A stretch of DNA of 22,500 nt, from positions 1-22,500 of the forward strand of contig CAYVSA010000031.1 of the NCBI GenBank assembly GCA_964454175.1. The letters are read 5' to 3'. The notes under the pieces are model-generated. The model was not told where the DNA came from and ran no database searches. It worked only from the letters and a program-made list of their open reading frames with translations. Position numbers and translations under genes: made by a program. Position 1 is the first letter of the stretch. Every line of letters starts with the position of its first letter. This stretch comes from an uncultured Pseudomonadota bacterium. GTDB taxonomy: Bacteria > BMS3Abin14. Of the stretch, positions 516 to 19,942 are shown piece by piece.

Positions 516-2132
516 CTACGGTTTTTTAAGTTCCATTCTCTTGATACGGCTAACAAGGGTCGTCGGCCTTAATCCCAAAAGTTCTGCGGCTCCCCCTGAT
601 CCATAGATCTTCCAGTTTGTCCGCCTGAGAGCCGCGATTGTGTTTTCCCTGTTTAACTTGATCATTTCCGCCTCAGGCTTAACTTCGACCGTTACTTCTT
701 CCCGGTCTCTGGATGTTGGGGTGTAATGGGTGGTGTCCCCGGAAATATTTTGAAGATCCAGCGCTATCAAACCTGACCGGGATCTGATCATTGCTCTTTC
801 CAGGACATTTTGCAATTCCCTGATGTTGCCTGGCCAATCATAGCTTTGCAGCATGGTGATCTGCTTCTGGGTCAGGCTCGGTTTGGGCCTGTTCATCTTT
901 CGGGCTATCAGATTGAGGAAGTATTCCGCGAGAAGGGGGATGTCCTCCACCCTGCGGCGCAGAGGGGCCACCTCGATGGGGAAGACATTCAAACGGTAAT
1001 AAAGGTCCTTTCTGAATTGAGTCAGCTCTACTGCCCTGTCAAGGGGTCTGTTCGTTGCTGAAATAAAGCGGATATCTACTCTTTGGGTTTTCTCCTCCCC
1101 GACCCTTTCGAATTCACCCTCCTGTATGATCCTGAGGAGTTTACTTTGATGTTCAAGGGGCGTTTCGCCAACCTCATCCAGAAACATTGTGCCTCTGTCA
1201 GCAGCCATGAGACGGCCCATTCGGTCTTTAACGGCTCCGGTAAAGGCCCCCTTGACATGCCCTAAAAATTCACTGTTCCATAGTTCCTTCGGGACCGCCG
1301 CGCAATTCACTTTGATCAAAGGTTTGTCCTGGCGAAGGCTTCTTCGGTGAAGCTCTCGTGCGACGAGTTCTTTTCCCGTTCCGGTTTCACCCAGGATAAG
1401 GACGCTGGCGTTTGTGGGCGCCACCAGCTCGATCTGTTGAACGACTTTCTGGTGATCAGGGCTCATGCCGATAAGGTCGCCGTATGCCTGGGCAGTGTTA
1501 AACTCCTCCTTGAGATAAATGTTTTCGACCTCAAGTTGGCTTTTGAGCTGGCTGATCTTTTCAAAGGCCCGGGCGTTGGCTATGGCTATTGCCACATGAT
1601 CGGCCACCATTCTGAGCATTGGGAGGAGTCCCTCCTTCAGATTTCTACGTGAGAAGATTGCGAGGACACCCAGGATCTCACCGCGAAAGATAAGAGGCTG
1701 GCCGCCGAAACTGCTTATCTGTTCGTTCCTTGCCCATTCGATGTCCGCAAAGGTTTCCGTATCCTTGTCTACATTGATGGCCTCAAAGGGCTGACCGTCT
1801 ACACCGATGCGGCCGACTTTTCTGTGGCCGAATGGGATTCGGCGATAACTCCCGTCGGTGCGGGACCAATTTTCGCCATCTGGGCGGACGGATCGTCCTG
1901 AACTGGCCATGAGGTGGAGACACTTGTTGTTGTCCACGCATTGAGCGGCCATCGGACAGGAGGGACAGATGTCACCCGGCAGGATCAGCCATATGCGGGA
2001 AAGGGCTATCTCCTCATAATCAGCCAGCCGCTCGACTATAAGCTTGAGAAGAGCGTCGAGAGACAGCTGCTGGGCCATCTCAAACAGCAGTTCTTGAAAG
2101 GCCTGAAATTCACTGTTCAACAGGTTTACCAT
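516..2132 (-). CDS. Sigma-54-dependent transcriptional activator (GAF - AAA+ - HTH; FhlA/NifA-like), positional equivalent of NitA
   Basis: Walker A GETGTGKE, GAFTGA loop, Walker B FLDEVGE, WPGNIRELQN, C-terminal HTH (GAAELLGLRPTTLVSRIKRM) and an N-terminal GAF. Start at ATG 2132 preferred because the extension to 2204 covers the putative UAS repeats. Confidence 0.93.
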   Translation of the reverse strand: MVNLLNSEFQAFQELLFEMAQQLSLDALLKLIVERLADYEEIALSRIWLILPGDICPSCPMAAQCVDNNKCLHLMASSGRSVRPDGENWSRTDGSYRRIPFGHRKVGRIGVDGQPFEAINVDKDTETFADIEWARNEQISSFGGQPLIFRGEILGVLAIFSRRNLKEGLLPMLRMVADHVAIAIANARAFEKISQLKSQLEVENIYLKEEFNTAQAYGDLIGMSPDHQKVVQQIELVAPTNASVLILGETGTGKELVARELHRRSLRQDKPLIKVNCAAVPKELWNSEFLGHVKGAFTGAVKDRMGRLMAADRGTMFLDEVGETPLEHQSKLLRIIQEGEFERVGEEKTQRVDIRFISATNRPLDRAVELTQFRKDLYYRLNVFPIEVAPLRRRVEDIPLLAEYFLNLIARKMNRPKPSLTQKQITMLQSYDWPGNIRELQNVLERAMIRSRSGLIALDLQNISGDTTHYTPTSRDREEVTVEVKPEAEMIKLNRENTIAALRRTNWKIYGSGGAAELLGLRPTTLVSRIKRMELKKP

Positions 2133-2145
2133 GTAGTAATCGCTA

Positions 2146-2198
2146 AACGAAAATTCGTTTATTGTCAAACGTAATTTCGCTAATAACGTAATCTCGTT
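2146..2198. promoter_or_regulatory. Three imperfect palindromes (AACGnAAnnTCGTT-like), putative upstream activator sites
   Basis: AACGAAAATTCGTT 2146-2159, AACGTAATTTCGCT 2168-2181, AACGTAATCTCGTT 2185-2198; about 65-120 bp upstream of the -24 box. Confidence 0.65.
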
Positions 2199-2262
2199 GT
2201 ACACTTTTACAATAATCCTTCCAATAACGATTTGTTTTCAATGGATTAGCCCTGACGTCATG

Positions 2263-2279
2263 TTGGCATATCGTTTGCT
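2263..2279 (+). promoter_or_regulatory. Sigma-54 (-24/-12) promoter of the large operon
   Basis: TTGGCAT-ATCGT-TTGCT with GG 2265-2266 and GC 2277-2278 separated by exactly 10 nt; adjacent to a divergent enhancer-binding protein gene. Confidence 0.88.
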
Positions 2280-2352
2280 TCGTTCTCATATTATTAACTG
2301 TGCACCGCTCAGTGATATTTCCTGCGGTGCACCAGAGAAAAGGAGTAGAGAT

Positions 2353-2838
2353 ATGGCTAAGGTAGAAATTCCGAGACCGAAGGCAGGCGACAGTATCGTT
2401 AACATGAATCCGAAACTGTACGAGGATTACAAAGCGAAAGATGGGGAAAAAGCATTGATCACGATGCACACAGTACCCTATGAGGGTTCGGTTGGACTGA
2501 TTAATATGCTCACCTGTACTCGTCTGGTGCGCAAAGGTTACGATACGACCCTTCTCCTCTATGGGCCCGGTGCTCTAATGGCCGCTTCCTCTCGAGGTTA
2601 TCCGAATGTTGGTGATGAGGCTTTCCCTGGCCACCTGGCGTTTAACAAACAGCTTCAGGTTATCATGAATGAGGGGGGACGAGTCCTCGCGTGCCGGTTT
2701 GCCCTGGCTGCTCTATACGGCCACAGGGAAGAAGACGTGATGGAAGGCGTGACCCTCATTGATCCTCTGGATGTTCTCGATTGTGTAATTGAACATCAGA
2801 GGGCAGGTGGACTGATCCTGGCAACGTGGACAGTGTAA
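2353..2838 (+). CDS. MSMEG_0572/Sll0783 (NitB)-family DsrE-like protein, 161 aa
   Basis: Motifs TVPYEGSVGLINML, RLVRKGYDTTLLLYGPG, GDEAFPGH and ACRFALAALYGH match my recollection of this family. AGGAG RBS at 2341-2345 supports ATG 2353 rather than 2197. Confidence 0.88.
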   Translation: MAKVEIPRPKAGDSIVNMNPKLYEDYKAKDGEKALITMHTVPYEGSVGLINMLTCTRLVRKGYDTTLLLYGPGALMAASSRGYPNVGDEAFPGHLAFNKQLQVIMNEGGRVLACRFALAALYGHREEDVMEGVTLIDPLDVLDCVIEHQRAGGLILATWTV

Positions 2839-2911
2839 TTCTGTTCGCAAGCAGGGTAATGTGGTCACCTTAACAAGTGCATTGCATTAGCCAAGAAACG
2901 GAGGGGTATTT

Positions 2912-3781
2912 ATGGGACGCTTTAACAGGGGACTTAAACTTGAGCGCAGGGTTTTTGACGCCCATTGTCATATCGGCGCCATGGACGGGTTCCCTTATTA
3001 CGGTATTCCTGATCCGGTTAGTCCCACGGTTTTCGATGACCCTGATCGAGCCTCGAAGATTATGCTTATGGATGAATTGGGAGTGGATAGGGCAGTTGTG
3101 ATGTCCAATTATGGTATTCCGGATCCCAGCCAACCTTTCGGTCTCAACCCTGTGGTTCTGGAGGCCTGCGAACCTAAGGACAAGAGGATTCTTGGAGGGA
3201 TATGGTTTTCACCAATGGGTAAAATGAAGGAGGCGACCCTGGAAGCGCTCAAAAGCGCTGGAGCACCTGGAATCAGAGTTCTCAAATCAACCTGTCTCCT
3301 TGGCGGGAACTGGGACCCGGATGAGTGGGATGACGATGATAAAGAGGCTTGGGATGCTGTCCTTGAAGTGGCAAAAAAGCATGACTATGTCCTTCATCTT
3401 CACACCAGCCCTGGCGGAGGGTCCGATGTGAACAACTGCATCAAATTTGTCAGGAAGTTCGGAAAAGAAGTAAAGGTCCATGTAGTTCATGCCGGCGGAG
3501 GAGTATCTGGACATATTAAGTTCATACCAGAGTTTTTCAACCTGATTCGGGAGGGTTTCCAGGTATACACTGATACCTCCTGGGCTGTGGGTTTCGGTCC
3601 CCGATGGTTGTTTGACGAAATTGAAAAACAGGGCATTGGCGAGGATCGCGTCTTATTTGGGTCAGATGAACCCTGGAGCGATTTCTGGGGTGAATATTAT
3701 AAGATCGATGGCCTGGAGATGTCCGAGGAACTGAAGGACAACGTCTTCTGGAACAATGCTGAGCGCCTGTTCGGGATATAA
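2912..3781 (+). CDS. Metal-dependent TIM-barrel amidohydrolase (Amidohydro_2-like)
   Basis: DAHCH (HxH), LHLHTS, HVVHAGGG, DTSW, VLFGSDEPW and NAERLF; GGAGG RBS upstream. Confidence 0.88.
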   Translation: MGRFNRGLKLERRVFDAHCHIGAMDGFPYYGIPDPVSPTVFDDPDRASKIMLMDELGVDRAVVMSNYGIPDPSQPFGLNPVVLEACEPKDKRILGGIWFSPMGKMKEATLEALKSAGAPGIRVLKSTCLLGGNWDPDEWDDDDKEAWDAVLEVAKKHDYVLHLHTSPGGGSDVNNCIKFVRKFGKEVKVHVVHAGGGVSGHIKFIPEFFNLIREGFQVYTDTSWAVGFGPRWLFDEIEKQGIGEDRVLFGSDEPWSDFWGEYYKIDGLEMSEELKDNVFWNNAERLFGI

Positions 3782-3852
3782 TCTCGCTACAGTTAACAGC
3801 AACGCATGATTTCAACGGAATTTGAATTAGTATTCTGGAGACTGTCAGGGTG

Positions 3853-4965
3853 ATGGATAAGAGACTGAAAGACTTTATTGAGTTGCAGAGGTGTGGCGTC
3901 CGGGATAGCAACAAAATTATGTCCCGCAAAGGCGGAGCCGGGCCGACGGACGATAAGGCTTTCATTTTTTCGAACGGCATCACCCTGATGGTCCCGACTT
4001 TAAACGAATCTGCCAGGAACTCACAGTATGTCATAGAAAATCTCGGCGACCGGCGTATCCTGAGGAAAAACGGGGAAGTTATAGACACTGTACAGCAGGT
4101 CAGTTCCCCTGCGTTTTACAAATTGAAAACAAAGGATGGCATTCCCTATAAACAGATAGCCAGGCTGCACGGCACCAACTGCCTCGCTTCTACTGTGGTC
4201 CAGGAATGCGTTCGATACAACAATATCGACATGAGATGCCGCTTCTGCGGTGTAGGACTCTCACTGAAGAACGGGCTCACAATTCACACAAAGACCCCGG
4301 CCCAGCTGGCGGAGGTTGGTGCAGCCGCAAAACGTCTCGATGGTGTCACACACGTTACATTGACTACTGGAACCACTGATCTTGTCAACAAGGGTGCCGA
4401 TTATCTCGCCCAGTGCGCATTCGCAGTCAAGAGGGAAACTGGTCTTCCGATCCAGGCCCAGTGCGAACCACCGGAAGATTTGGGGGTTTTCGCGAACATG
4501 AAGAAGATGGGTGTTGATGACATCGGCATTCATGTCGAGAGCTTTGATCCTGTGATCCGCTCAAGATTCACCCCGGGGAAATCATCCATCAATATCGAGA
4601 CCTACTTTAAAACCTTCGAAGATGCTGTGGCTGTTTTTGGGAAGGGCAGAGTAAGCACTTTTATTATTCTGGGTCTGGGTGAGGATGAGGAACTCACCCT
4701 GTCCAGGTGTGGTGAAGCTATAAAAATGGGAGTTTATCCTTTCCTGGTTCCCCTGCGGGCCATTTCAAGCACATTTGTGGCGGGTGCGGTACCTCCCGAC
4801 GCAGAATACCTCTACAGGATGTACGTTAAAGTCGGTAAAATGCTTGAACAAAACCGAATGAATGCTGACCAGAGCAGTGCCGGATGTGTCAAGTGCAAAG
4901 CCTGTTCGCTGCTCCAGTTCACCGAGGGTGGTAGTAATTCGTCTGGCGCTGTAGAGGAGCACTGA
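3853..4965 (+). CDS. MSMEG_0568/NitD-family radical SAM protein
   Basis: RKGGAGPTD, IARLHG..CLASTVVQEC, C-x9-CxxC (CVRYNNIDMRCRFC), IQAQCEPPED, VYPFLVP and C-terminal AGCVKCKACS. GTG 3850 is an alternative start. Confidence 0.9.
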   Translation: MDKRLKDFIELQRCGVRDSNKIMSRKGGAGPTDDKAFIFSNGITLMVPTLNESARNSQYVIENLGDRRILRKNGEVIDTVQQVSSPAFYKLKTKDGIPYKQIARLHGTNCLASTVVQECVRYNNIDMRCRFCGVGLSLKNGLTIHTKTPAQLAEVGAAAKRLDGVTHVTLTTGTTDLVNKGADYLAQCAFAVKRETGLPIQAQCEPPEDLGVFANMKKMGVDDIGIHVESFDPVIRSRFTPGKSSINIETYFKTFEDAVAVFGKGRVSTFIILGLGEDEELTLSRCGEAIKMGVYPFLVPLRAISSTFVAGAVPPDAEYLYRMYVKVGKMLEQNRMNADQSSAGCVKCKACSLLQFTEGGSNSSGAVEEH

Positions 4966-5471
4966 TGTTAGAAAGAGAAAAAATCGAAACCAGGTTATCA
5001 GCTACCCATCAGTTCTCGACGCCCAAGCTGGAACTCAGGATTGCCTCGGAGCCCTGGGAGTTGGAAGCATACTTCACGATCCGGCACCAGGTTTTCGTGG
5101 AGGAACAGGGAATATTCGAGGATTCCGACCGGGACGAACACGACGAGATCAGCATCCCCATCATCGCTTGCTGTGACGGACGGATTGCCGGAGTAGTAAG
5201 ATGCTACCAGGAGTCGGAAGGCATCTGGTACGGTGGTCGACTGGCCGTCCACATGGACTATCGGAGATACGACCTTGGCACCCGCCTGGTTCAGGAGGCT
5301 GTTGAAACGATGAAGAGGCATGATGATGTCGACCGTTTCCTTGCCAAAGTCCAGATCCAGAATGTCCGGTATTTCAGGAGGTTGGGGTGGTTCCGGGTGG
5401 GAGAGCCGTTTGCCTACAACGGCGTAAGGCATCAGTTAATGGAAAACCCCCTTGACCGGGGTACTCAATGA
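4965..5471 (+). CDS. GNAT N-acetyltransferase, MSMEG_0567 N-terminal/Sll0786 (NitE)-like
   Basis: VFVEEQGIF..SDRDEHD, WYGGRLAVH and FLAKVQIQNVRYFRRLGW; TGATG coupling to the radical SAM gene. Confidence 0.87.
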   Translation: MLEREKIETRLSATHQFSTPKLELRIASEPWELEAYFTIRHQVFVEEQGIFEDSDRDEHDEISIPIIACCDGRIAGVVRCYQESEGIWYGGRLAVHMDYRRYDLGTRLVQEAVETMKRHDDVDRFLAKVQIQNVRYFRRLGWFRVGEPFAYNGVRHQLMENPLDRGTQ

Positions 5472-5863
5472 AGGTTACGGCGAAGTTTCTGGAAGATTAT
5501 AAATTCGAGATGGTTTCAGACCATCTCACAATAACATCCGATCAGGCTGAACAGTACGGCGGAGATGGGGCGGGGCCGATGCCTAGTGAGCTGTTTCTCT
5601 GGGCCATAGCTTCCTGTATGGGCCAATCCATCGTCCACATCATTGGGAGATTCCGGGAGAGCATAGAGAATCTCACATTGAGTGTTGAGGGAAAAAAGCA
5701 TCCCGAAAAGTTCCGGTACAGGAAAATTATCATCAGTATCCAGGGAGACTACCCTGATGACCGCCTGAAGGAGGTTGTAAAGATGGCCTCAGACTACTGT
5801 TTCATCTCTAATTCACTTGCTGAGGATATTGAGATCGAGATCCTCGTTGATGGCAGCGCATGA
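5468..5863 (+). CDS. OsmC/YhfA-family protein
   Basis: DQ..YGGDGAGPMPSELFLWAIASC and YCFISNSL, with the two conserved Cys; ATGA overlaps at both ends. Confidence 0.85.
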   Translation: MKVTAKFLEDYKFEMVSDHLTITSDQAEQYGGDGAGPMPSELFLWAIASCMGQSIVHIIGRFRESIENLTLSVEGKKHPEKFRYRKIIISIQGDYPDDRLKEVVKMASDYCFISNSLAEDIEIEILVDGSA

Positions 5864-7263
5864 ACGAACTTGATCGTGAAGTCAGAGTAATCAACATTGG
5901 CCTGAAGGAATTTTACCATGACCTCAAGGCTCTGAACGTCCCTTCGGTCCACGTGGATTGGCGTCCGCCAGCGGGTGGGGATCACCATCTGGCCGAGTCT
6001 CTGGTACGCTTGAGAGGCGCAAAGTACGATAGGGCTAACGCCAACACCATAGCCAGGATGCTCAAAAGCAATCCTGTTTGGATCGACGTAGGAGAAGCGA
6101 AAGACGAGATCCCCGGCATGCTGCCAAACCATGTGCTGCACTCTGGCCCGCCTATCGATTTCGACGATATGTGTGACCCTCAACAGCGCGCTGTGGAAGG
6201 TGCGGCAGTTTTTGAGGGATGGGTAAGGGACAAATCAGAGCTGAAAAAGAAGATACGCAGCGGGAAGATCGTGCTGGCACCAAACTACACGTTAAACAGC
6301 ATTGGACCTATGTGTGGCGTCATAACTCCATCCATGAGCGTTATCGTCACCCAGAATAAATCCTTCGGGAACAGGTCCTGGTCCACCTTTAACGAGGGGA
6401 AAGGAAATGTTCTGTGGATGGGCACATATGACGATGGAAGCATCCAGAGGCTCAGGTGGATCAAGGATACTCTGGGACCAGGTCTCAAGGAAGCACTGAA
6501 GCACAGCGAAGGCGGCATCGACCTGCATGCCATCCTTTCTGAGGCGGTCCAGATGGGCGATGAAGCACATGCAAGAAGTGCGGCATGTACGTCGCTTTTG
6601 CTGCAGCGGCTCTATCCACTCCTTCTCAAAACCTGTCTGGACAGAAGATCTATTCTGGAAATAGTGGAATTTATCGGCAGCAACAACCACTTTTTCCTGA
6701 ACCTGACCCTTACCGCGTGCAAAGTAACCGCCGATGCTGCCCACGGGATAAAGAACTCCATGATCGTTACGGCAATGTCCCGCAACGGTGTTGATTTTGC
6801 ACTCAGGGTAGGGGGTGGTGGAGGTCGATGGTTCATCTCTCCTGCTGCTCCCATGGACGAGGCAATTTACTATTCGGGGTATTCCTTTGAGGATGCCGCC
6901 GGTGACATCGGTGACAGTGCCATTGTGGAAACGGCGGGGCTTGGTGGAATGGTCATCGGTGCAGCCCCCTCAATATGTTCTTTCGTGGGAGGCACCATGG
7001 AAGACTCGGTCAGGGCCATGAAGACAATGAAAAGCATCTGCGCGGGGAGCAATCCCAAATTCGCACCTGCTTCTGCGGATTTCATGTCCGCGCCGTTAGG
7101 GATCGATATTCGCAAAGTCGTACAAACGGGGATCACACCGATAATAGATACAGGTGTAATACACAAATCCTCAGGGGTTGGTCAGATTGGAGCCGGGATT
7201 GCCAGAGCGCCAATAGAAGCGTTCGAGAAAGCTGTCACCCATTTTGGAGGAAATAATGAGTAA
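5860..7263 (+). CDS. ylbE: YlbE/YahG (DUF1116; AllG-type transcarbamoylase subunit) with an N-terminal FdrA-tail-like segment
   Basis: LHSGPP, GPMCGVITPSM, NEGKG, QMGDEAHAR, NNHFFLNL, TAMSRNG, GDIGDSAIVETAGLGG and PLGIDIRKVVQTGITPIIDTG...GQIGAG. Confidence 0.88.
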   Translation: MNELDREVRVINIGLKEFYHDLKALNVPSVHVDWRPPAGGDHHLAESLVRLRGAKYDRANANTIARMLKSNPVWIDVGEAKDEIPGMLPNHVLHSGPPIDFDDMCDPQQRAVEGAAVFEGWVRDKSELKKKIRSGKIVLAPNYTLNSIGPMCGVITPSMSVIVTQNKSFGNRSWSTFNEGKGNVLWMGTYDDGSIQRLRWIKDTLGPGLKEALKHSEGGIDLHAILSEAVQMGDEAHARSAACTSLLLQRLYPLLLKTCLDRRSILEIVEFIGSNNHFFLNLTLTACKVTADAAHGIKNSMIVTAMSRNGVDFALRVGGGGGRWFISPAAPMDEAIYYSGYSFEDAAGDIGDSAIVETAGLGGMVIGAAPSICSFVGGTMEDSVRAMKTMKSICAGSNPKFAPASADFMSAPLGIDIRKVVQTGITPIIDTGVIHKSSGVGQIGAGIARAPIEAFEKAVTHFGGNNE

Positions 7264-8215
7264 GCCAGTTGCTGTTGTTGCCTTTGGTGGAAACGCGATA
7301 CTCAGTTCCAATGAAGATATGGCCTTCGAGACCCAGTTGAGGAACGCCCAGGAAACCTGTCGCCAGATGCTGGCTATCCTCCACAAGCGGTATGAACTTG
7401 TCATCGTGCACGGCAACGGACCCCAGGTTGGGAACCTGCTCATCCAGTTCGAGAATGCCCGTGACTTAATCCCCGTTCCCCCTCTCGATGTGGCAGTAGC
7501 GTCTTCTCAGGGGCTTTTGGGTCACATGCTGCTCATCAGCATGCGATCAGTTCTGGAAGAGGAATGTCTCCAGAAGGAGGTTACTGCAATCCTGACCCAG
7601 GTTGTGGTGGACGAGGACGATCTTGCCTACCAGGAGCCCACGAAGCCCATCGGGCCCTTTTACACTGTAAAGAGGGCCGAGGAACTGAGGAATGAAAAAG
7701 GATGGCATATAGTAGAGGATTCCAGCCGCGGGTATCGCAGAGTTGTATTTTCCCCGCGCCCAAGAAAAGTGCTGGCCCTGAACGTTATAAGAAAACTGCT
7801 TGATAGCGGTATAATAGTAATCGCCTGCGGCGGAGGGGGGATCCCGATTAACTACAAGACTGGTAAGATAATCGGTACCGAAGGAGTAATTGATAAGGAT
7901 TTTACCGCCTCGCTTCTTGCTTATAATCTTGGTGCAGAACTGTTCATGATCCTGACAGGAGTGAACAAGGTCAGCCTGGATTTCGGGAAGCCGACTCAAA
8001 GTGAAGTTGACGTCATGACAGTGGAGGAAGCCAGGAAGTGGTTCGAAGAGGGCCAGTTCCCGTCCGGAAGCATGGGCCCGAAGATCGAAGCGGCCGTCGA
8101 ATTCGTTGAAAGGGGAGGCAAAGAGGTTATCATAACTGGCGAAAGGAATGTCGTGGATGCGCTCAATCATGGTGCCTGCACCAGGATTGTCAGCGAAAGG
8201 CTGCTTGACGATTAA
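7256..8215 (+). CDS. arcC: Carbamate kinase (ArcC/YbcF-AllK family)
   Basis: AFGGNA, HGNGPQVG, PTKPIGPFY, RGYRRVV.SP.P, GGGGIP, VIDKD and GSMGPKIEAA; GGAGG RBS at 7246-7250 supports ATG 7256. Confidence 0.95.
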   Translation: MSKPVAVVAFGGNAILSSNEDMAFETQLRNAQETCRQMLAILHKRYELVIVHGNGPQVGNLLIQFENARDLIPVPPLDVAVASSQGLLGHMLLISMRSVLEEECLQKEVTAILTQVVVDEDDLAYQEPTKPIGPFYTVKRAEELRNEKGWHIVEDSSRGYRRVVFSPRPRKVLALNVIRKLLDSGIIVIACGGGGIPINYKTGKIIGTEGVIDKDFTASLLAYNLGAELFMILTGVNKVSLDFGKPTQSEVDVMTVEEARKWFEEGQFPSGSMGPKIEAAVEFVERGGKEVIITGERNVVDALNHGACTRIVSERLLDD

Positions 8216-8227
8216 AGGGGCCTAGCG

Positions 8228-9733: not shown

Positions 9734-9798
9734 AGTAATATTCGCAAGGTGATGGTTGTGCGCGTTTCACCGGATACCTCGACCCTTTAGGAGAGATT

Positions 9799-11247: not shown

Positions 11248-11251
11248 GACA

Positions 11252-12433
11252 ATGGAAAAAGACAAATTTGACCCACGGGCGAAAGTTGAGATCTCCAGCG
11301 AGCTCCTCCATTCCGTTGACACGTGCGCCCGGTGCGGATTCTGCAAGCCGGCGTGCACTACCCATCCCTTCGGGGGTGGATTCGAGGCGTTTTCACCACG
11401 TGCAAAAGTGCATTACATAAAGCAGGTACTGGAAGGAAAGGAAAAGCTGACCCCCGACTGGGTGGATCGCCTCTATCAGTGCACCACCTGCGAGAGGTGC
11501 GAGGAGGTATGTCAGACGGATATCCCGCTGGTCCCCCTTTGGGAGACGCTTCGTGCAATGTCGGTGGAACAGGGCATTGGCCCGATGCCGATGCACCGGA
11601 AACTCAGGGAAAGCGTGGACACCTACAGCAACCCCTACGGCGAACCCACCAACGAGAGACACCAGTGGATGCTCCCTGACCACCAGCCTGCCGGGGAGGC
11701 TGACATTCTGGTGTTCGGTGGATGCACAGCGTCCTACAAAATGCCGTTTATGCTTCAGACAGGTGTGACCATTCTGCAAAAACAGGGGATCTCTTATGCC
11801 TATGCGGGTAGCGATGAAGTGTGCTGCGGAAGCCCGATCCTGAGGACAGGCCAGATGGGGACGGCCCTGCAGTTGATCGAGTCGAACATCGACCTGTTCC
11901 ACAAGCTGGGTGTAAAAGAGATCGTCACTCCGTGCGGTGGCTGCTCGAAGACCCTCAAGGCAGATTACCCCAAGTTTGCCGGGATCCTGGGTAAGGAGTG
12001 GAGCTTTGAAGTCAAACATTTTTCAGAAGTATACGTTGACTTGATACGGTGCGGAGAGATTAAGCCTTCCAAGGTGATAAACAGAAAGGTAACCTATCAT
12101 GATCCCTGTCACCTGGGACGCTCCCAGAATATTTTTAACGAGCCCAGGGAGATACTCAAAGCTATCCCGGGCTTGACCCTTCTGGAGATGGAGAGCACCA
12201 TGGAGGACTCGCGGTGCTGCGGTGCCGGCGGGGGTGTTAAGGCCAACTATCCGGAAATGGCCGATGACATTGCAGACAGGAGGGTGCGGGAGGCAATTGC
12301 CACCGGTGCTGACACTCTGGTTACAATGTGCCCCTTCTGCCAGACGAGCTTTACTCAATCAATTAAAAGGTTGAGTGCCCCGCTGGAATTATTGGGGGTC
12401 GAGGACCTGCTGCTGCAGTCAGTGGAAGATTGA
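11252..12433 (+). CDS. Fe-S oxidoreductase (GlcF/HdrD-like; two [4Fe-4S] motifs plus two CCG domains)
   Basis: CARCGFCKPAC, CTTCERCEEVC, CCG, PCGGC, YHDPCHLGR, CCGAGGG and CPFC. Confidence 0.9.
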   Translation: MEKDKFDPRAKVEISSELLHSVDTCARCGFCKPACTTHPFGGGFEAFSPRAKVHYIKQVLEGKEKLTPDWVDRLYQCTTCERCEEVCQTDIPLVPLWETLRAMSVEQGIGPMPMHRKLRESVDTYSNPYGEPTNERHQWMLPDHQPAGEADILVFGGCTASYKMPFMLQTGVTILQKQGISYAYAGSDEVCCGSPILRTGQMGTALQLIESNIDLFHKLGVKEIVTPCGGCSKTLKADYPKFAGILGKEWSFEVKHFSEVYVDLIRCGEIKPSKVINRKVTYHDPCHLGRSQNIFNEPREILKAIPGLTLLEMESTMEDSRCCGAGGGVKANYPEMADDIADRRVREAIATGADTLVTMCPFCQTSFTQSIKRLSAPLELLGVEDLLLQSVED

Positions 12434-12437
12434 GGCT

Positions 12438-13298
12438 ATGGGTGGAAACATCGGCTGTGCCGTCCTGGAGATGGCGCGTAGGGGCGTCACCGGCAGTGTG
12501 GCCGCTGTATTTGACAGATCAACACACCTGAAGTCCGACGACACAACTATCACACTCGGGACACTGGATATCCCGAACCACCCCTTTACCATCAGAACTG
12601 TTCATTTCCCTGCCGCACTTCGGGTGGGATCGGGATTCAAACTTTTATTGAATAAGATCGTTATCTCGGATCTTTACCGGGAAGACCTGAGTACAATGGA
12701 AATATTCACGCCGCCAATGTGCGTCAACGACATGGTTGATGTTACAGCCATGTTTTCATGTCTCCAAGAGGCGCGCAGATTGGTAGCCACTACCACTTTC
12801 AAGGATGGATTCAGCTCCTTTGTTATCACAAGCCCCCTTCAAGGAATTATCACCCAGGCCGTAGTCCCTGTTCTAGACAGCGTGATGGAGACTATCCGCA
12901 AGAAAGATTGGCTGGGAATGGCAACCAGCGCAGTCGACCTTGCGGGAATAGGTGAAGGGCTCACCCCTTCAGGAGACGATTTCCTGGTTGGCCTGATAGC
13001 AGCCCTGCGCTTTCACCACAGTAGCGGAGGACCGGGCCCCGATACCGAACTTTTAAAAACCCTGGCCATGGAGGCGGGGAAAAGGACATCGCCATTTTCA
13101 TCACAGTGCATCCGGGCAGCAGCCGATGGCCTGGTTTCAGAGGACGTTTCGGATTGGCTTGTCTCCTTCCACGTCGGGGACATTGATGCCATGAAGGATT
13201 CCACGACCAGGCTGCTGAACCAGGGGCATTCCAGCGGGGTTGATACCTTCGCGGGTATGTCCATGGGACTGTCCTCCATTCTCGAGATTGGAAAATGA
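12438..13298 (+). CDS. DUF2877 / YlbF (AllH-type transcarbamoylase subunit)
   Basis: GIGEGLTPSGDDFLVG and GHSSGVDTFAG signatures; ATG 12438 chosen, directly after the preceding stop. Confidence 0.85.
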   Translation: MGGNIGCAVLEMARRGVTGSVAAVFDRSTHLKSDDTTITLGTLDIPNHPFTIRTVHFPAALRVGSGFKLLLNKIVISDLYREDLSTMEIFTPPMCVNDMVDVTAMFSCLQEARRLVATTTFKDGFSSFVITSPLQGIITQAVVPVLDSVMETIRKKDWLGMATSAVDLAGIGEGLTPSGDDFLVGLIAALRFHHSSGGPGPDTELLKTLAMEAGKRTSPFSSQCIRAAADGLVSEDVSDWLVSFHVGDIDAMKDSTTRLLNQGHSSGVDTFAGMSMGLSSILEIGK

Positions 13299-14263
13299 GC
13301 CGGCCCGGCCTTTCAGCGCTGGTGGAGGGGATTCGTGCTTCCAGGCAGTTCGCTCAGAAGAGATCCATCGGCACCATTGTAGGCTATAATGAACAAGACT
13401 CCCTGGATTCCCACATTCTCAATGGGGATGATGCTGCTGTCATTGCCGATGGCGATGAGTACCTGCTCCTGGCTGCTGAGGGGATTATTCCTTCCCTGGT
13501 TGAGTTGGACCCTTTTTTCGCTGGTAGAAGTGCTGTACTGGCAAATGTGAATGATATTTACTCAATGGGCGGCCACCCGACTGCTTTGGTCAATGTCATC
13601 GGCAGCAGTGACCCTAATACCGCTGGAGAAGTTCTAAGGGGGATGCGGAACTTTGCGGCGCGTTTCAACGTGCCCATTGTCGGGGGCCATACACTTATAA
13701 GCGAAGGAATGGCCTCAATCTCTCTCACGGTCCTTGGCAGGGCCAGGCGTTTGATCACCAGTTTCGATGCCCATCCTGAAGACAGGGTCGCTCTCGTGTA
13801 TAATCCCGAGGGCAGCTGGCTGGACGAACTGGGGTTCTGGAACTCCATCCCGGCCAGGAGCGCCCGGGACCACGTGGGGGATCTGGAGCTCCTTCCAAAA
13901 GCTGCTGAATCCGGGATGGTGTGCGCAGGAAAAGATATCAGCATGGCAGGAATCGCAGGCACAGCCCTGATGTTTGCCGAAGCCTCTGGTCTTGGAATGC
14001 GCATTGATCTGAACAGGGTCCCAGTCCCTGAGGGAATTGATCCTGGCAGATGGCTGCTGGCATATTTCTCCTACGGTTTTATACTTGCTGTAGCTGGAAA
14101 AAACTGGGGATTCGTATCGGAGCTTTTTGAAAACCGTTCTCTGGACATGTTGGACATCGGCCATTTCTGCAGCGGATCCCAGGTTCGTTTCTCAAAAGAT
14201 GGTGACACGCAGGTCCTGTGGGATTGGGCGAAGGATTCCTTTACGGGATTTTCTAAAAGATGA
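13295..14263 (+). CDS. sll0787/MSMEG_0567 C-terminal (NitF)-like AIR-synthase-related protein (PurM/SelD/HypE superfamily)
   Basis: NGDDAAVI, LLLAAEG, ANVNDIYSMGG, VPIVGGHT and AGKDISMAGIAGTALM. Confidence 0.87.
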   Translation: MSRPGLSALVEGIRASRQFAQKRSIGTIVGYNEQDSLDSHILNGDDAAVIADGDEYLLLAAEGIIPSLVELDPFFAGRSAVLANVNDIYSMGGHPTALVNVIGSSDPNTAGEVLRGMRNFAARFNVPIVGGHTLISEGMASISLTVLGRARRLITSFDAHPEDRVALVYNPEGSWLDELGFWNSIPARSARDHVGDLELLPKAAESGMVCAGKDISMAGIAGTALMFAEASGLGMRIDLNRVPVPEGIDPGRWLLAYFSYGFILAVAGKNWGFVSELFENRSLDMLDIGHFCSGSQVRFSKDGDTQVLWDWAKDSFTGFSKR

Positions 14264-15036
14264 TCGTTTCACAACCAATGTGGGGCCAAAAGAGCAGGTT
14301 TTTTCTGCCCAACGAAGATGCTCACGCGGTCCGGGAGGCAATTGCCATGCTCGGCGCTGCGCCGCGATTCCCTGTGTTCGTCGGTGGATCAGGATTGTTG
14401 ATCCTGGAGGTTGCAAGGACTCTTCCCGGGAAAACAGGGGCGGTGTATGTGGATATCTCCCTGTTTCAGGTGGAATATTTCGGCAAGATTCTGACGGCCC
14501 TGGGCCGACTCCATTCACCGGAAGAGTTAAGGGAGTGGTTTTCGCTCGAAGTCTATCCGGTCTTACGGGATCATTTTGTCGAGGCCAGGGACCGTCTTTA
14601 CCTTGAAGAGCAGGTTTATTACGCGATGGAGCACCTGTTCCGGATAAGGTTCTTTTTCGAGGACGATGCTTTCACGCAGGCCAGGGATGCAGGCAAACGG
14701 GTGAAAGTGTCTCAGGAGGACATTGTCGATTATCTCGGGAGGACACGAAACCGGCACGATTTCGTCTACCTTAGCAACATTCTGGATTATCTGCCGACTG
14801 AGAAGGTGTCGATCCTGGCAGGATACTGTATGTCCCTAGGTGCCGCTGTATACGCTCTCGTAACAGAGGCGTGTCCGGATCAGAGGTCTGTGGCCGGACT
14901 CTGGAAAGATGCCGGCTTTGAGGTTCATCCCGGAAGTGACGAGCTTTCAGCGATTAATCGAGGTCTCGGATCAAAGAGTCTTGATCGGCCGTGGAACCGG
15001 GTGGGCGAGGTGCTGCTGTTGACGCCCGGAAAGTAA
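14260..15036 (+). CDS. Hypothetical protein, probable class I SAM-binding fold (BtaA/DUF3419-like)
   Basis: PNED, VGGSG, YVDIS..Q and DFVYLSNILDY resemble BtaA-like SAM-binding motifs; ATGA coupling to the preceding gene. Family call tentative. Confidence 0.55.
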   Translation: MIVSQPMWGQKSRFFLPNEDAHAVREAIAMLGAAPRFPVFVGGSGLLILEVARTLPGKTGAVYVDISLFQVEYFGKILTALGRLHSPEELREWFSLEVYPVLRDHFVEARDRLYLEEQVYYAMEHLFRIRFFFEDDAFTQARDAGKRVKVSQEDIVDYLGRTRNRHDFVYLSNILDYLPTEKVSILAGYCMSLGAAVYALVTEACPDQRSVAGLWKDAGFEVHPGSDELSAINRGLGSKSLDRPWNRVGEVLLLTPGK

Positions 15037-15135: not shown

Positions 15136-16125
15136 ATGAAAAAAGCAACATTTATGGTTATTGCAGTGATTGCTGTAGCAGGTGCCCTCTTCCTGACTCG
15201 TGACAACCCGTCCAGGGAGGGAAAATCCGAAGACACTCCTGTCAGGATGGCCTATCTTCAAAATGACATTCATCACCTTGCCCTGTGGGTTGCACTGGAG
15301 AAGGGTTATTTCCAGGAAGAGGGAGTCGAGGTTGAAATCGCGGGTATATTCAGAGCTGGACCAGAACTCATGAGCGCTTTTACCGCCGGCGCCCTTGATA
15401 TGGGTTACGTCGGAGAGGCTCCGTCCACTTTTGCTGTTGCCAACCGGACTGCCGATGTGAAGGTTGTAGCTCAGGTCAACACTGAGGGTTCGGCATTGAT
15501 GGTGTCCAGAACTTCAACGGATATCAATGCGGTCTCAGCTCTGGAGGGGAAAGTTGTCGGTGTGCCTGGTCACGCAACGGTTCAGGATTTTCTGTTGAGT
15601 AAAGCCCTGTCAAATGCAGGTATTGATCCCTCCAAAGTAAATATAGTGATCATCAAACCTCCAGAAATGATCGAGGCCCTCCGAGCGGGTCAGATCGACG
15701 CCTTTATCGCCTGGGAGCCCTATCCTTCTAAAGCCGAGGTAGAACAGGTGGGCAGGAACCTGGCAAGCTCAGGGGACATTTGGGCCGACCATCCATGCTG
15801 CGTTCTCGTATCTGATGCTGAATTCATGGAATCGGAACCCGGGAAGGTAAAAAAGGTAGTGCGCGCCCACATCAGGGCAACAGAGTTTATCAGGGCCAAT
15901 AACGAGGAGGCAATACGCATTGGCGTCAAGTACACCGGGATGGATGAGCCGTCGGTGCGCAGGGCCCTCAAGTCAGTAGAGTACACCTTCGTTCCAAGTG
16001 TAGCCGGTGAGAGGGAGTATGTCAGGTTCCTTTCTGAACTAGGATACCTTAGGGTTGATGATATCGATGCCTTCGTGTCTGATTTCATTAACGAGGATTT
16101 CCTGGGTGATATCGAGGCCCGATGA
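15136..16125 (+). CDS. ABC transporter substrate-binding protein (SsuA/TauA/NMT1/NrtA-like)
   Basis: N-terminal signal/anchor, GYFQEEG, G.LDMGYVG..P, GQIDAFIAWEPY and HPCCV. Confidence 0.9.
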   Translation: MKKATFMVIAVIAVAGALFLTRDNPSREGKSEDTPVRMAYLQNDIHHLALWVALEKGYFQEEGVEVEIAGIFRAGPELMSAFTAGALDMGYVGEAPSTFAVANRTADVKVVAQVNTEGSALMVSRTSTDINAVSALEGKVVGVPGHATVQDFLLSKALSNAGIDPSKVNIVIIKPPEMIEALRAGQIDAFIAWEPYPSKAEVEQVGRNLASSGDIWADHPCCVLVSDAEFMESEPGKVKKVVRAHIRATEFIRANNEEAIRIGVKYTGMDEPSVRRALKSVEYTFVPSVAGEREYVRFLSELGYLRVDDIDAFVSDFINEDFLGDIEAR

Positions 16126-16880
16126 GAGGAAAACAGCTTGTCCCGCCGCTTGTTCTGGTCGCTTTATGGCAGGCTGTGTGTTCAATCGGCCTGGTCCCGG
16201 TCTACAAACTGCCGTCTCCCGTTCAGGTCCTGATTGGTCTCGGTAATCTGATAACGGTTGGCCTGCCTCCGGGCCACCTACTACACACCCATATTCTGTA
16301 CAGTCTGGAAAGAGTATTTATAGGGTATGCAGCTGCGGTCTTGACTGCTATACCCTTGGGAATCTCCATAGGTTGGTCAAAGAGGGTCCGTTTCATGCTG
16401 GAGCCGCTGGTAGAACTCTTTAGGCCGATCCCTCCGCTGGCCTGGATCCCCATCGCTATTATGTGGTTCGGCATCGGGACAAAATCAGCAGCGTTCATCA
16501 TCTTCCTGGGTGCCTTTTTCCCGATCCTACTCAATACCTCCTCCGGTGTGCTCGGCATCGATCCCATTCTCATAGAGGCGATACTGACTCTGAATGCCAA
16601 AAAGAGGGACGTTGTGTTCAGGGTTCTCGTCCCCGGGGCCATTCCAACCATAATCACCGGGATGAGGATAGGCTTGGGTCTCGGGTGGATGACTTTAGTG
16701 GCAGCAGAATTTTCGGGCGTCAAAGAAGGCTATGGTTTGGGTTATATGATAATGACGGCCAGAGACATCCAGCGGCCAGATGAAGTTCTTGCGGGAATGA
16801 TGGTAATTGGTATGATCGGACTCGTCATTGACGGGCTGCTGCGGTTGGCGGAGAAAAAACTGATTAAATGGAGACACTGA
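16122..16880 (+). CDS. ABC transporter permease (SsuC/TauC/NitT family)
   Basis: LPSP, RPIPPLAWIP, WFGIG, EAA-like loop and LVAAE; multiple hydrophobic segments. Confidence 0.92.
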   Translation: MRGKQLVPPLVLVALWQAVCSIGLVPVYKLPSPVQVLIGLGNLITVGLPPGHLLHTHILYSLERVFIGYAAAVLTAIPLGISIGWSKRVRFMLEPLVELFRPIPPLAWIPIAIMWFGIGTKSAAFIIFLGAFFPILLNTSSGVLGIDPILIEAILTLNAKKRDVVFRVLVPGAIPTIITGMRIGLGLGWMTLVAAEFSGVKEGYGLGYMIMTARDIQRPDEVLAGMMVIGMIGLVIDGLLRLAEKKLIKWRH

Positions 16881-16893
16881 TGAGGGAGAACAA

Positions 16894-17649
16894 ATGGCAC
16901 TGAATCTCAGTTTGTCGGGATTGAAAAAAATATTTCCCGGTAACGGGACTCTCAATGAGGTTCAGGTAATTGAGCAGTTGGACTGCAGTATAGAGAAGGG
17001 CCAGTTTGTATCCATTGTCGGTCCCAGCGGCTGCGGGAAAACGACCCTGCTCAAGATCATAGCTGGTCTGGAAGCCGCGACAGAGGGGAGTATCCTCTTG
17101 GACGGGGAGATTATTTCCGACAACGATAACCGTGTGGGGCTGGTTTTTCAGGAGTTGGCCCTGTTTCCCTGGAGGACGACCGTCCAGAATATTGAGATGG
17201 GTCTTGAGATCCGTGGTGTACCCAGGATGCAGAGACGCCGGGAGGCCTTGAAATACGTGAAGGAGTTCGGGCTTTTCGGTTTTGAGGATACATACCCCAG
17301 AATGCTATCCGGTGGCATGAAACAGAGGGTAGCAATCGCCCGTACCCTCATCGCAAATCCCGAAGTACTGTTGATGGACGAACCATTTGGTTTCCTGGAC
17401 AGCCAAACGAGGATGGAGATGCAGAACTTTCTCCTTGAGGTCTGGGAGAGGAGGCAAACAACAGTTGTCTTTGTAACTCACAACGTGAACGAAGCCATAT
17501 ATCTTGGAGACCGTGTCATGGTCATGTCAAGCCGCCCATCCAGGATTATGGATATTTTCGACGTCGATATTCCCAGGCCAAGGGAGCGCTCCGATCCGAA
17601 GTTTTCGAGGCTCAGGGAGGAAGTCTTCGATCTGTGTGCCAAATTGTAA
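16894..17649 (+). CDS. ABC transporter ATP-binding protein (SsuB/TauB family)
   Basis: GPSGCGKT, LSGGMKQR, LLMDEPF and FVTH. Confidence 0.94.
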   Translation: MALNLSLSGLKKIFPGNGTLNEVQVIEQLDCSIEKGQFVSIVGPSGCGKTTLLKIIAGLEAATEGSILLDGEIISDNDNRVGLVFQELALFPWRTTVQNIEMGLEIRGVPRMQRRREALKYVKEFGLFGFEDTYPRMLSGGMKQRVAIARTLIANPEVLLMDEPFGFLDSQTRMEMQNFLLEVWERRQTTVVFVTHNVNEAIYLGDRVMVMSSRPSRIMDIFDVDIPRPRERSDPKFSRLREEVFDLCAKL

Positions 17650-17690
17650 TTTTATGAATTCGGTGTGTGCATGTATGAGAATAATTTGGT

Positions 17691-18347
17691 GTGTCGGGTA
17701 ATATTGGTGTGGATGTAGATGCTGCGGATGTAAGGGTTTTGCGACCGGGGATTTTGAGAAGGGCCCCTGATGGAACTATCCTGGATGCCAGGTCCTCGGT
17801 GACCCTGATAAGCACCATTGGACATAAAATAGTAGTCGATACCGGCCCGACGGATGAAGGTGAGAAAATACAGGAAAATCTGTCCCGAGCCGGTCTGCAG
17901 CTTCGTGACATAAGCATCGTCATCAACACCCACCCGCATCCGGATCATACGGGTGGAAATCATTTGTTCGAAAGGGCTGCTGTTTTATGCGGACGCCAGG
18001 GGTTATTATGGCTGGCTAAAAAGGCGGTGGTTACCAAAAAGTATCCCCTGGTCAGTGACGATGAGGTTTTGTTGGATGAAAGAGTATCCCTCATAAAGAC
18101 ACCTGGACATACATGGGACAGCATAAGTGTCATCATAAGAGGTGCCTCATCGGTTTTCAGTGAATCCCGCGAAACTATTGTAATTGCAGGTGACGCACTT
18201 CCCACCAAAAGTAATTATGTCAAATGGGTGCTTCCTGCTGTCCGCGTTTGCAGCAAGGAAAGTCTTGCAAGTATGAAAAAGATTGTTGAGATTTCTAACT
18301 GGGTGATACCGGGACACGATGAGCCATTCAGGGTAAAAGACTTCTGA
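17691..18347 (+). CDS. Metallo-beta-lactamase-fold hydrolase
   Basis: VVDTG, THPHPDHTGGN, TPGHT, AGDA and IPGHD; GTG start is uncertain. Confidence 0.87.
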   Translation: MSGNIGVDVDAADVRVLRPGILRRAPDGTILDARSSVTLISTIGHKIVVDTGPTDEGEKIQENLSRAGLQLRDISIVINTHPHPDHTGGNHLFERAAVLCGRQGLLWLAKKAVVTKKYPLVSDDEVLLDERVSLIKTPGHTWDSISVIIRGASSVFSESRETIVIAGDALPTKSNYVKWVLPAVRVCSKESLASMKKIVEISNWVIPGHDEPFRVKDF

Positions 18348-19938: not shown

Positions 19939-19942
19939 GAGG

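Follow-up and report, generated by a model that had tools for sequence, protein, structure and literature searches.

A nitrilase-free operon of Nit1C-type, AllFGH-like and carbamate kinase genes is a branch of a widespread cluster type of the Nit1C/gpr family

Introduction

The Nit1C gene cluster, which is defined by seven genes (Podar et al., 2005; PMC1199592) and is also known as nitBCDEFGH in cyanotrophic Pseudomonas and as sll0783-0787, includes a nitrilase reported to be required for growth on cyanide as nitrogen source (PMC7815647). Relatives of its core make up the gpr cluster of Mycobacterium smegmatis (MSMEG_0565-0572), for which about 100-fold induction by nitrogen starvation via GlnR, resistance to peroxide and an altered NADPH/NADP ratio are reported (PMC6039565); no other cluster of the family is known to have a cluster-level phenotype. 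In Escherichia coli, the AllFGH enzyme is reported to interconvert oxalurate and oxamate plus carbamoyl phosphate, and it was assayed in the carbamoylating direction and found to be reversible in vitro (PMC11326118). The carbamate kinase AllK is described as catabolic (PMC9843812), and AllFGHK sets are reported beside allantoin or biuret genes (PMC12625717). Genes related to both systems were found together in an operon at positions 516-18347 of contig C31 (CAYVSA010000031.1, assembly GCA_964454175.1) of an uncultured Pseudomonadota bacterium. This 22.5-kb stretch, hereafter the window, is the entire contig, and the host genome (G000) is of 2.17 Mb and 98.5% complete.

Four of the seven Nit1C genes are common to the window, namely those for ORF1 (open reading frame 1), the radical S-adenosylmethionine (SAM) protein, the GNAT acyltransferase and the AIR-synthase-like protein. 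The order of the first genes is the same, and a divergent sigma-54 activator is also present in the Pseudomonadales Nit1C locus L002. However, the window is devoid of the nitrilase (subfamily 1, Nit6803-type), which is the second gene of Nit1C, of the ORF6 of about 100 amino acids (aa; MSMEG_0570) and of the ORF7 flavoprotein (MSMEG_0569), it has 13 added genes, and its radical SAM protein, with 424 bits versus 553–594 for canonical members, falls outside the nitrilase-type clade. The core families are likewise common to the gpr cluster, which belongs to the nitrilase type, also encodes a glycosyltransferase and a flavoprotein and, unlike the window, lacks AllFGH, carbamate kinase, importer and CCG-domain protein; the OsmC gene of the window is a further redox hint. 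With the E. coli AllFGH/AllK system the window shares the same three subunit families and a carbamate kinase in one operon, and by analogy the chemistry may be the same, that is, carbamoyl/phosphate exchange followed by ATP formation from carbamoyl phosphate. Nevertheless, the window proteins are equally far from AllFGH/AllK and from the uncharacterised YahF/G/E/I: FdrA is 41% identical to AllF and 43% to YahF, AllG 41% to YlbE (AllG) and 39% to YahG, AllH 30% to YlbF (AllH) over 125 aa and 22% to YahE, and the carbamate kinase 40% to YbcF/AllK and likewise to YahI. The bacterial coenzyme M synthesis pathway, reported as XcbABCDE (PMC9457059), has counterparts in soil sister clusters, and no such gene is present in the window.

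A carbamoyl-phosphate type of the Nit1C/gpr cluster family

The window operon is a branch of a widespread carbamoyl-phosphate type of the Nit1C/gpr cluster family, in which the nitrilase is absent. Its Nit-type and All-type genes are given below with their family scores in bits and the curated cut-offs, which all of them exceed.

2353..2838, + strand, MSMEG_0572/Sll0783 (NitB) family protein with a DsrE/YchN/TusD-like fold (TIGR04044, 216.9; cut-off 109.85)
3850..4965, + strand, MSMEG_0568-family radical SAM protein (NitD) (TIGR04043, 424.5; cut-off 303.7)
4965..5471, + strand, MSMEG_0567/Sll0786 GNAT acyltransferase (NitE) (TIGR04045, 136.5; cut-off 68.45)
5860..7263, + strand, AllG/DUF1116-like subunit (PF06545, 246.6; cut-off 27)
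7244..8215, + strand, carbamate kinase, arcC (TIGR00746, 359.4; cut-off 358.25)
8228..9733, + strand, FdrA/AllF-like subunit, succinyl-CoA-synthetase-alpha-like (NF004760, 498.9; cut-off 433)
12375..13298, + strand, AllH/DUF2877-like subunit (PF11392, 78.9; cut-off 25)
13295..14263, + strand, sll0787-family PurM/AIR-synthase-like ATP enzyme (NitF) (TIGR04049, 327; cut-off 321.3)

No Nit6803-type nitrilase was found in the window, and the best match to TIGR04048 in the genome reached 38.9 bits (cut-off 502.6) and lies on a different contig. MSMEG_0570 (TIGR04042) and MSMEG_0569 (TIGR04046) had no match anywhere in this 98.5%-complete genome, and the best match to the MSMEG_0565 glycosyltransferase (TIGR04047) was of 48.7 bits, with a cut-off of 259.85. 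Similarly, allB, allC, allD and allE were not found in the window, whereas fdrA of E. coli has allE, allC and allD as neighbours.

A metagenome scan with an alignment of the radical SAM protein gave 516 relatives, of which the best 80 loci were kept and searched by tblastn with 30 proteins; these loci are the ones most like the window radical SAM protein and do not constitute an unbiased census. AllG, FdrA or carbamate kinase was encoded in 37 of them and a Nit6803-type nitrilase in 11, while none had both and 32, mostly short contigs, had neither. When only the 32 loci of at least 10 kb were considered, the respective numbers were 21, 7, 0 and 4. In the 55 loci with enough upstream DNA, the gene directly 5' of the radical SAM gene was a divergent carbamate kinase (16), Amidohydro_2 (13), nitrilase (11), MSMEG_0572 (5) or a gene matching another probe (2), and in 8 it matched no probe.

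In the tree of the radical SAM protein (58 rows, quick method, root not inferred, with long branches; 32 of 90 rows, from contigs too short for classification, were dropped) the 12 nitrilase-type rows all fell in one clade, with a value of 99 in the Shimodaira-Hasegawa-like approximate likelihood ratio test. The carbamoyl-phosphate type was divided among three or more lineages, namely a soil clade (33 rows), the window clade (five rows: window, G004, G009, L020 and L022) and L081, which adjoins the nitrilase clade. The genome G284 was placed apart, on a long and unsure branch. From this topology, the published nitrilase type would be one derived clade of a larger family, and the carbamoyl-phosphate type may be older.

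The AllG tree, unrooted and built by a careful method from 25 rows, placed the 19 copies linked to the radical SAM gene, without exception, on one side of a branch supported at 100/99, with YahG and AllG of E. coli on the opposite side, together with four copies that have no linked radical SAM gene (G011, G028, G029 and G038). A separate deep clade comprised the window, G004, G009, G014, L020, L088 and L022. The initial annotation, made from the sequence alone, had cited the E. coli oxalurate enzyme among the established systems. On the basis of this branch and of the identities of 41, 41 and 30%, the AllF/G/H-like genes and those of E. coli are not orthologous, and oxalurate should consequently not be assumed as the substrate.

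Some other observations concern the AllFGH-like family. The first 50 residues of the window AllG (5860-6010) resemble the C-terminal tail of E. coli FdrA, and G284 encodes a separate 161-aa protein (L009, 15918-16403) built of pieces like the N- and C-terminal parts of FdrA. Evidently, the domain boundaries in this family shift between genes. An ORF at L081:16318-17124 was considered as a possible AllH and rejected, as it had no likeness to the AllH of G284. Finally, the locus L014 (G011:C14, 645-10683), from the same family and without the radical SAM cluster, encodes TetR, the TRAP components DctPQM, AllG, FdrA, carbamate kinase, AllH and a gamma-glutamyltranspeptidase, and its AllFGHK set is a plain, catabolic-looking contrast to the window cluster.

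Transcription unit and gene content

The list of ORFs has 17 on the plus strand between 2353 and 18347, with a widest gap of 99 nt and eight overlapping pairs, and one on the minus strand (516-2204). All but one of the 17 could be assigned to Pfam or NCBIfam families, the exception being the gene of a 258-aa protein. The remaining features of the operon are the following:

516..2204, - strand, divergent GAF/AAA+/HTH sigma-54 activator of 562 aa (PF00158, 224.3 bits; GAF, 47.1 bits)
2264..2279, + strand, sigma-54 promoter (-24/-12), TGGCAT-N5-TTGCT, 74 nt before the ATG at 2353
2912..3781, + strand, Amidohydro_2 metal hydrolase or decarboxylase (PF04909, 80.7 bits; cut-off 26.4)
5468..5863, + strand, OsmC-like protein (PF02566, 61.1 bits)
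9799..11247, + strand, VAO/GlcD-type flavin adenine dinucleotide (FAD) flavoprotein (PF01565, FAD_binding_4, 119.6 bits; GlcD, 94.5 versus 567.9)
11252..12433, + strand, iron-sulfur (Fe-S) protein with a 4Fe-4S dicluster and two CCG domains, GlcF/HdrD/TfrB-like (PF02754, 134.5 bits, two stretches; TfrB, 264.1 versus 385)
14260..15036, + strand, 258-aa protein of an unnamed small family (no Pfam/NCBIfam match; 40 homologue clusters)
15136..17649, + strand, ATP-binding cassette (ABC) importer: SsuA/TauA-type binding protein (15136-16125), permease and ATPase (SsuA_fam subfamily model, 180.6; cut-off 163.5)
17691..18347, + strand, final gene, metallo-beta-lactamase (MBL)-fold hydrolase (PF00753, Lactamase_B, 65.6 bits)

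The promoter motif alone is not above chance, as 1.36 matches are expected per window. Nevertheless, TGGCAT-N5-TTGC was unchanged in the five syntenic loci (5/5), in which the remaining spacer was 59% identical. A good ribosome-binding site lies between the promoter and the ATG at 2353, which is the start of gene 1 and replaces the TTG at 2197 initially proposed, and the host genome encodes rpoN. The terminator scan gave 27 sites in comparison with 18.5 ± 4.4 in shuffled sequence. None of the terminator-like sites lay within the plus-strand intergenic gaps of the operon, and a GC hairpin followed by a T run was found about 130 nt beyond the last gene. The 17 genes probably form a single transcript. 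In the activator, the AAA+/HTH part is 49% identical to that of the activator adjoining the canonical Nit1C locus L002, whereas the sensor domains cannot be aligned.

The proposal in the initial annotation of one sigma-54 unit with 17 co-oriented and interleaved genes was supported by the analysis. Its gene families also held when checked with hidden Markov models (four Nit1C-type genes, the AllF/G/H-like genes, carbamate kinase, Amidohydro_2, the FAD/Fe-S pair, the ABC importer and the MBL hydrolase), but it had left unnamed the OsmC-like gene (5468-5863) and the 258-aa gene (14260-15036).

Concerning the core proteins, the model of the gene-1 (MSMEG_0572-family) protein had a predicted local distance difference test (pLDDT) value of 81, and DsrE/YchN/Tus-type proteins accounted for all the top 10 fold matches in the PDB and for 12 of the top 13. 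Its Cys114 is invariant in 11 of 11 homologues. A YchN-like fold had already been proposed for the ORF1 of Nit1C by Podar et al. (PMC1199592). In the radical SAM protein, C120, C130 and C133, which form a variant CX9CX2C site, and a C-terminal CxxCxxC motif are invariant in all ten homologues. Its only characterised relatives are lipoyl synthases, and these are weak matches (LipS2, 39.9 bits; PDB lipoyl synthase, E=1e-4). The sll0787-family protein retains the GDDAA, NDIxxMGG and GGH motifs.

The Amidohydro_2 gene occupies the slot held by the nitrilase in Nit1C. The full set of metal ligands of its product (HxH motif, H164, H193 and D252) is invariant in eight of eight homologues, and its family is small, with 41 representatives at E<=1e-30 among 1.84 billion. 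Both C50 and C111 of the OsmC-like protein are kept in six of six homologues. The genes of the FAD/CCG pair are located between those of FdrA and AllH, and the flavoprotein had a good match to solved structures limited to the FAD domain. For the importer, the equivalog models TauA, TauC and SsuC were far below the cut-off and SaoA was also below it. The best solved structures for the binding protein were the unnamed 4nmy (1e-13), SsuA (1.6e-13) and TauA (6.4e-13), followed by nitrate and bicarbonate binders (1e-11 to 1e-10). As the matches to GlcD, TfrB, TauC and SaoA are far below their cut-offs, these names indicate likenesses only. Dissimilatory sulfite reduction was considered as a reason for a sulfonate importer and ruled out, since no match to dsrA was found in the genome.

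Among the 401 genomes searched, the 258-aa protein was present solely in the four that bear the cluster. Weak matches to Methyltransf_25 in 10 of 24 family members and a DUF3419-like Atlas lead (0.94) are consistent with a class-I SAM-binding fold, which it possibly has. Its model, from a four-sequence alignment, had a pLDDT of 42, too poor for a fold search. The possibility that the family is the counterpart of a Methyltransf_20 protein of G284 was rejected, given that hhalign detected no likeness (probability 0.5%).

Invariant and exchangeable parts of the cluster

Besides the genes that define the two types, the 80 metagenome loci contained genes for a GT4 glycosyltransferase (MshA/BshA-like; 26 loci), Amidohydro_2 (19), an XRE-cupin regulator (15), a CoA-disulfide-reductase-like protein (14) and OsmC (12), all of which tend to accompany the carbamoyl-phosphate type. 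Coenzyme M genes of the xcb kind were found in 14 of the 80 loci: 13 are of the carbamoyl-phosphate type (13/37), one is short and unclassified, and none is of the nitrilase type. In the soil loci this set consists of ComA, an XcbA-family protein (344.8 bits; cut-off 150), two Lyase_1 genes and an XcbE-like gene below the cut-off.

Comparison of the window with the soil versions separated the parts that are invariant (the DsrE-fold protein, Amidohydro_2, radical SAM protein, GNAT, PurM-like enzyme, OsmC, AllF/G/H and carbamate kinase) from those that are exchangeable. The window branch has the importer where 13 of the 37 carbamoyl-phosphate-type loci have genes for the synthesis of coenzyme M, the FAD/CCG pair in place of the CoA-disulfide-reductase-like flavoprotein of the common type, and a sigma-54 activator instead of the XRE-cupin regulator. 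It lacks the xcb-like genes, the GT4 gene and the XRE-cupin regulator, and has the 258-aa protein and the MBL hydrolase in addition.

Conservation among genomes and flanking regions

The phylum sample comprised 16 genomes from one family and nine genera. The cluster was found in four of these genomes, belonging to four of the nine genera (G000, which is that of the window, G004, G009 and G014), with the same order and with protein identities of 51–96%. The MBL gene follows the importer in G009 and G014, and the window query did not detect it there in G004. The congeners G001, G003, G010 and G011 do not have the cluster.

In the 401 genomes sampled, the radical SAM family was above the cut-off in eight. 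AllG, FdrA and carbamate kinase adjoin it in four of them (G000, G004, G009 and G284), and the contexts in G016, G062, G229 and G377 are different. G284, a complete genome of 1.8 Mb from a different family, has all the shared parts in a rearranged form. Its minus strand encodes Amidohydro_2 and a zinc-ribbon protein, and its plus strand GNAT, sll0787, an XRE-cupin regulator, AllG, FdrA, carbamate kinase, MSMEG_0572, the radical SAM protein, a CoA-disulfide-reductase-like flavoprotein, AllH, an MSMEG_0565 glycosyltransferase and OsmC, which are followed by further genes. The glycosyltransferase resembles MshA and BshA, and there are also a CysK/cysteate-synthase-like protein, a decarboxylase and an aminotransferase, all of them below the cut-off. 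ComA was not found in G000, G004, G009, G014 or G284, that is, in any of the five genomes with the combination. The two modules co-occur, therefore, in three further genera of the phylum, in the rearranged and distant G284 and in 37 of the 80 metagenome loci, and the operon is not a one-off hybrid but a member of a widespread cluster type. In the searchable full-text literature, with subscription papers and supplementary files outside its reach, we found no description of the combination of Nit1C genes and carbamate kinase, in agreement with the initial suggestion that it was undescribed.

The regions flanking the cluster differ. A complete tmRNA gene (RF00023, 200.1 bits; window 1-361, - strand) lies at the start of the contig, directly beside the activator, and no tRNA or tmRNA was found near the cluster in L004, L005, L006, L020 or L009. 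None of the genes flanking the cluster in L020 has a counterpart in the window or in L004, L005 or L006. Downstream (18422-22086), the window contains a nickel/cobalt uptake locus in which cbiO and cbiQ are convergent and cbiM, which is divergent, encodes a fusion with a PDGLE domain; the ORF listed for its nikR is longer at the N terminus by some 60 residues. A nitroreductase/BluB-like gene comes next. The GC content of this locus is 0.59, in comparison with 0.52 in the operon, and cbiO, cbiQ, nikR and cbiM were not found after the cluster in G004, G009 and G014. The patchy presence in congeners, together with these differing flanks, indicates that the cluster is an accessory unit. A recent horizontal transfer was considered on the basis of composition and rejected, as the GC content of the cluster (0.521; genome, 0.532) is matched by 9.8% of the 16-kb windows as low and is thus not anomalous.

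Members of the radical SAM family were also observed in other surroundings. A scan of the genome contigs with the single radical SAM protein gave two loci, the canonical Pseudomonadales Nit1C (L002) and a relative in Candidatus Methanoliparum (L003). In the latter (8352-12980), the archaeal protein, 44% identical, is encoded between a CobB/CobQ-like amidotransferase gene and an HcyBio-CBS homocysteine-biosynthesis gene with ferredoxin. In L011 and L012 (G229 and G062) the genes above the cut-off adjoin those of a histidine kinase and an OmpR-type response regulator and are the only Nit-type genes there, so the TIGR04043 model also covers members that do not belong to the cluster. In L008 (G016:C22, 4238-11069) an MSMEG_0568-family gene (311.9 bits) is co-directional with those for two CCG Fe-S proteins, a NarI-like membrane protein and an AFOR_N-domain protein, and no GNAT or PurM-like gene was found nearby. 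Finally, L022, the closest outgroup of the window's clade, encodes a C_GCAxxG_C_C "putative redox-active" protein (589-1068) just 5' of the MSMEG_0572 gene.

Possible function of the operon

The data establish the operon as a conserved functional unit and define its position within a larger family, and from its gene content we infer what follows about the mechanism. The reading that we favour, although tentatively and with confidence that falls a little short of even, is that the operon would release nitrogen through carbamoyl phosphate under the control of the sigma-54/GAF activator. The SsuA-type ABC system would import a small organic compound, possibly a sulfonate, and the core enzymes and hydrolases would act on this compound, free or bound to a carrier, to yield an intermediate with an N- or S-carbamoyl group. 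The FAD/CCG pair would provide a redox step, which may be either an oxidation next to the carbamoyl group, like that of AllD before AllFGH in E. coli, or the recycling of a disulfide. The AllFGH-like enzyme would then phosphorolyse the carbamoyl group to give carbamoyl phosphate, which the carbamate kinase would convert to ATP, CO2 and ammonia. The AllFGH/carbamate-kinase module would be, in this manner, an energy-conserving counterpart of the nitrilase, both of them freeing ammonia from a C-N group under nitrogen limitation. We prefer the release of nitrogen because the nitrilase and the AllFGH/kinase module are strict alternatives, because relatives are reported to be induced by starvation (PMC6039565) and because the known AllFGH and AllK are described as catabolic (PMC11326118, PMC9843812). 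The presence of an importer and two hydrolases in what appears to be one transcription unit would also fit catabolism, and the FAD/CCG genes lie within the AllFGH set.

Several facts weigh against this reading. Sister clusters carry genes that look biosynthetic or related to thiol redox (xcb-like in 13/37 loci, GT4 in 26/80 and CoA-disulfide-reductase-like in 14/80), and the phenotype reported for gpr is peroxide resistance with an altered NADPH/NADP ratio and not the use of a nitrogen source (PMC6039565). As AllFGH is reported to be reversible and was assayed as a carbamoylating enzyme (PMC11326118), the direction of the reaction is not fixed here. The ligand of the importer is not readable from its sequence, nitrate and bicarbonate binders appearing barely more distant than SsuA and TauA. 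Furthermore, only the lineage of the window has the FAD/CCG pair, the importer and the 258-aa gene, which therefore tell little about the whole family. Catabolism of a nitrogen-rich substrate by a self-contained pathway, as initially annotated, stands consequently as one reading, since the sulfur and thiol clues and the genes of sister clusters admit others; for the ring-opening that had been included in it, no specific support was found.

These clues are the cysteine of the DsrE-fold protein, the two cysteines of OsmC and the genes of the sister clusters, and they point to sulfur or thiol chemistry. In the main rival reading, which we hold with rather less confidence than the first, the operon could make or salvage, and also recycle, a small sulfur metabolite, for example a cofactor of the thiol or persulfide kind. 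The DsrE-fold protein would deliver sulfur, the radical SAM protein with its two clusters would insert it, and the GNAT, PurM-like and methyltransferase-like enzymes would tailor the product; the carbamate kinase would make carbamoyl phosphate for carbamoylation by the AllFGH-like enzyme, OsmC would use the product against peroxides, and the CCG/FAD pair would re-reduce the disulfide, as the CoA-disulfide-reductase-like enzyme or the MSMEG_0569 flavoprotein would do elsewhere. The DsrE fold with its invariant Cys114, the second invariant CxxCxxC of the radical SAM protein and its weak relatedness to lipoyl synthases, and the retention of both OsmC cysteines argue for it. A disulfide-reductase-like partner also seems to exist in each type: the CCG/FAD pair here, the CoA-disulfide-reductase-like protein beside AllH in G284 and in 14 of the 80 loci, and, in Nit1C, a flavoprotein with a weak match to the YpdA bacillithiol-disulfide reductase. 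The radical SAM gene is again beside two CCG genes in G016, the glycosyltransferase is like MshA and BshA, the gpr cluster is reported to give peroxide resistance (PMC6039565), and every variant includes some module from which a small sulfur compound could come (the xcb-like genes, the CysK/cysteate-synthase-like protein and decarboxylase of G284, or the SsuA-type importer of the window). However, the window version has an importer and hydrolases instead of the glycosyltransferase and synthesis genes, and the roles described for bacterial carbamate kinases in the sources cited are catabolic (PMC9843812, PMC11326118). In addition, the either/or distribution of nitrilase and AllFGH/kinase (0/80 with both) is more easily explained if both release nitrogen, and all the links to sulfur are resemblances at family level, several of them below the cut-off.

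An unlikely alternative is that cyanide-type nitrogen would be assimilated on a carrier thiol with conservation of energy. Hydration of a cyano adduct (organic thiocyanate or cyanamide) would give an S- or N-carbamoyl compound, and phosphorolysis of the latter would give carbamoyl phosphate, in the reverse of the HypF/HypE route, and the carrier would be a coenzyme-M-like sulfonate thiol that is imported here and synthesised in the soil lineages. HypE carries a C-terminal cysteine, which the PurM-like protein of the window does not have; in addition, no rhodanese or cyanide-specific gene is present in the operon, the G284 cluster has neither ComA nor an importer, and the proposal is entirely inferential. 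On the other hand, it would be consistent with the xcb-like genes inside the soil clusters, the SsuA/TauA type of the importer, the failure to find ComA in the five genomes with the combination (5/5) and the alternation of nitrilase and AllFGH/carbamate-kinase module. The experimental link between Nit1C and cyanide assimilation (PMC7815647) and the inclusion of HypE in the PurM superfamily, as indicated by Podar et al. (PMC1199592), also agree with it. It must be also considered that the operon could hold two independent pathways side by side, an ordinary oxalurate or ureide set and a degenerate remnant of Nit1C, as AllFGH and carbamate kinase occur without Nit genes in G011, of the same phylum, and AllG occurs without a nearby radical SAM gene in the four other loci examined (4/4). 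We disfavour this as highly improbable, because the genes are interleaved (sll0787 and AllH come after the FAD/CCG pair) with 4-nt overlaps that imply translational coupling, the two sets are kept together through the rearrangement in G284 and in 37 metagenome loci, and the AllG copies linked to the radical SAM gene have their own side of the tree.

The release of nitrogen through carbamoyl phosphate and the handling of a sulfur metabolite would be reconciled by a carrier-thiol version, improbable as we judge it to be. A non-methanogenic bacterium would scavenge coenzyme M itself, or a sulfonate thiol like it, through the importer, the DsrE-fold, radical SAM and PurM-like core would process a carrier-bound cyano or carbamoyl group, the AllFGH-like enzyme would pass it on as carbamoyl phosphate to give ATP and ammonia, and the Hdr-like CCG/FAD pair would recycle the carrier.

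Significance

Conservation across phyla, induction by nitrogen starvation and links to the use of cyanide and to peroxide resistance characterise the Nit1C/gpr family, and none of its core enzymes has a known reaction. The window provides a lean version of the cluster, fed by an importer and devoid of the MSMEG_0569 flavoprotein, which is the only component of Nit1C that looks oxygen-dependent. By separating invariant from exchangeable parts, its comparison with the soil versions narrows the chemistry to steps that are coupled to carbamoyl phosphate and probably linked to sulfur, and it names concrete proteins for assay. If the carrier-thiol reading were true, the 20-year-old puzzle of Nit1C would become a family of carrier-thiol-dependent pathways for the assimilation of C-N compounds, of which the nitrilase form would be a derived offshoot.

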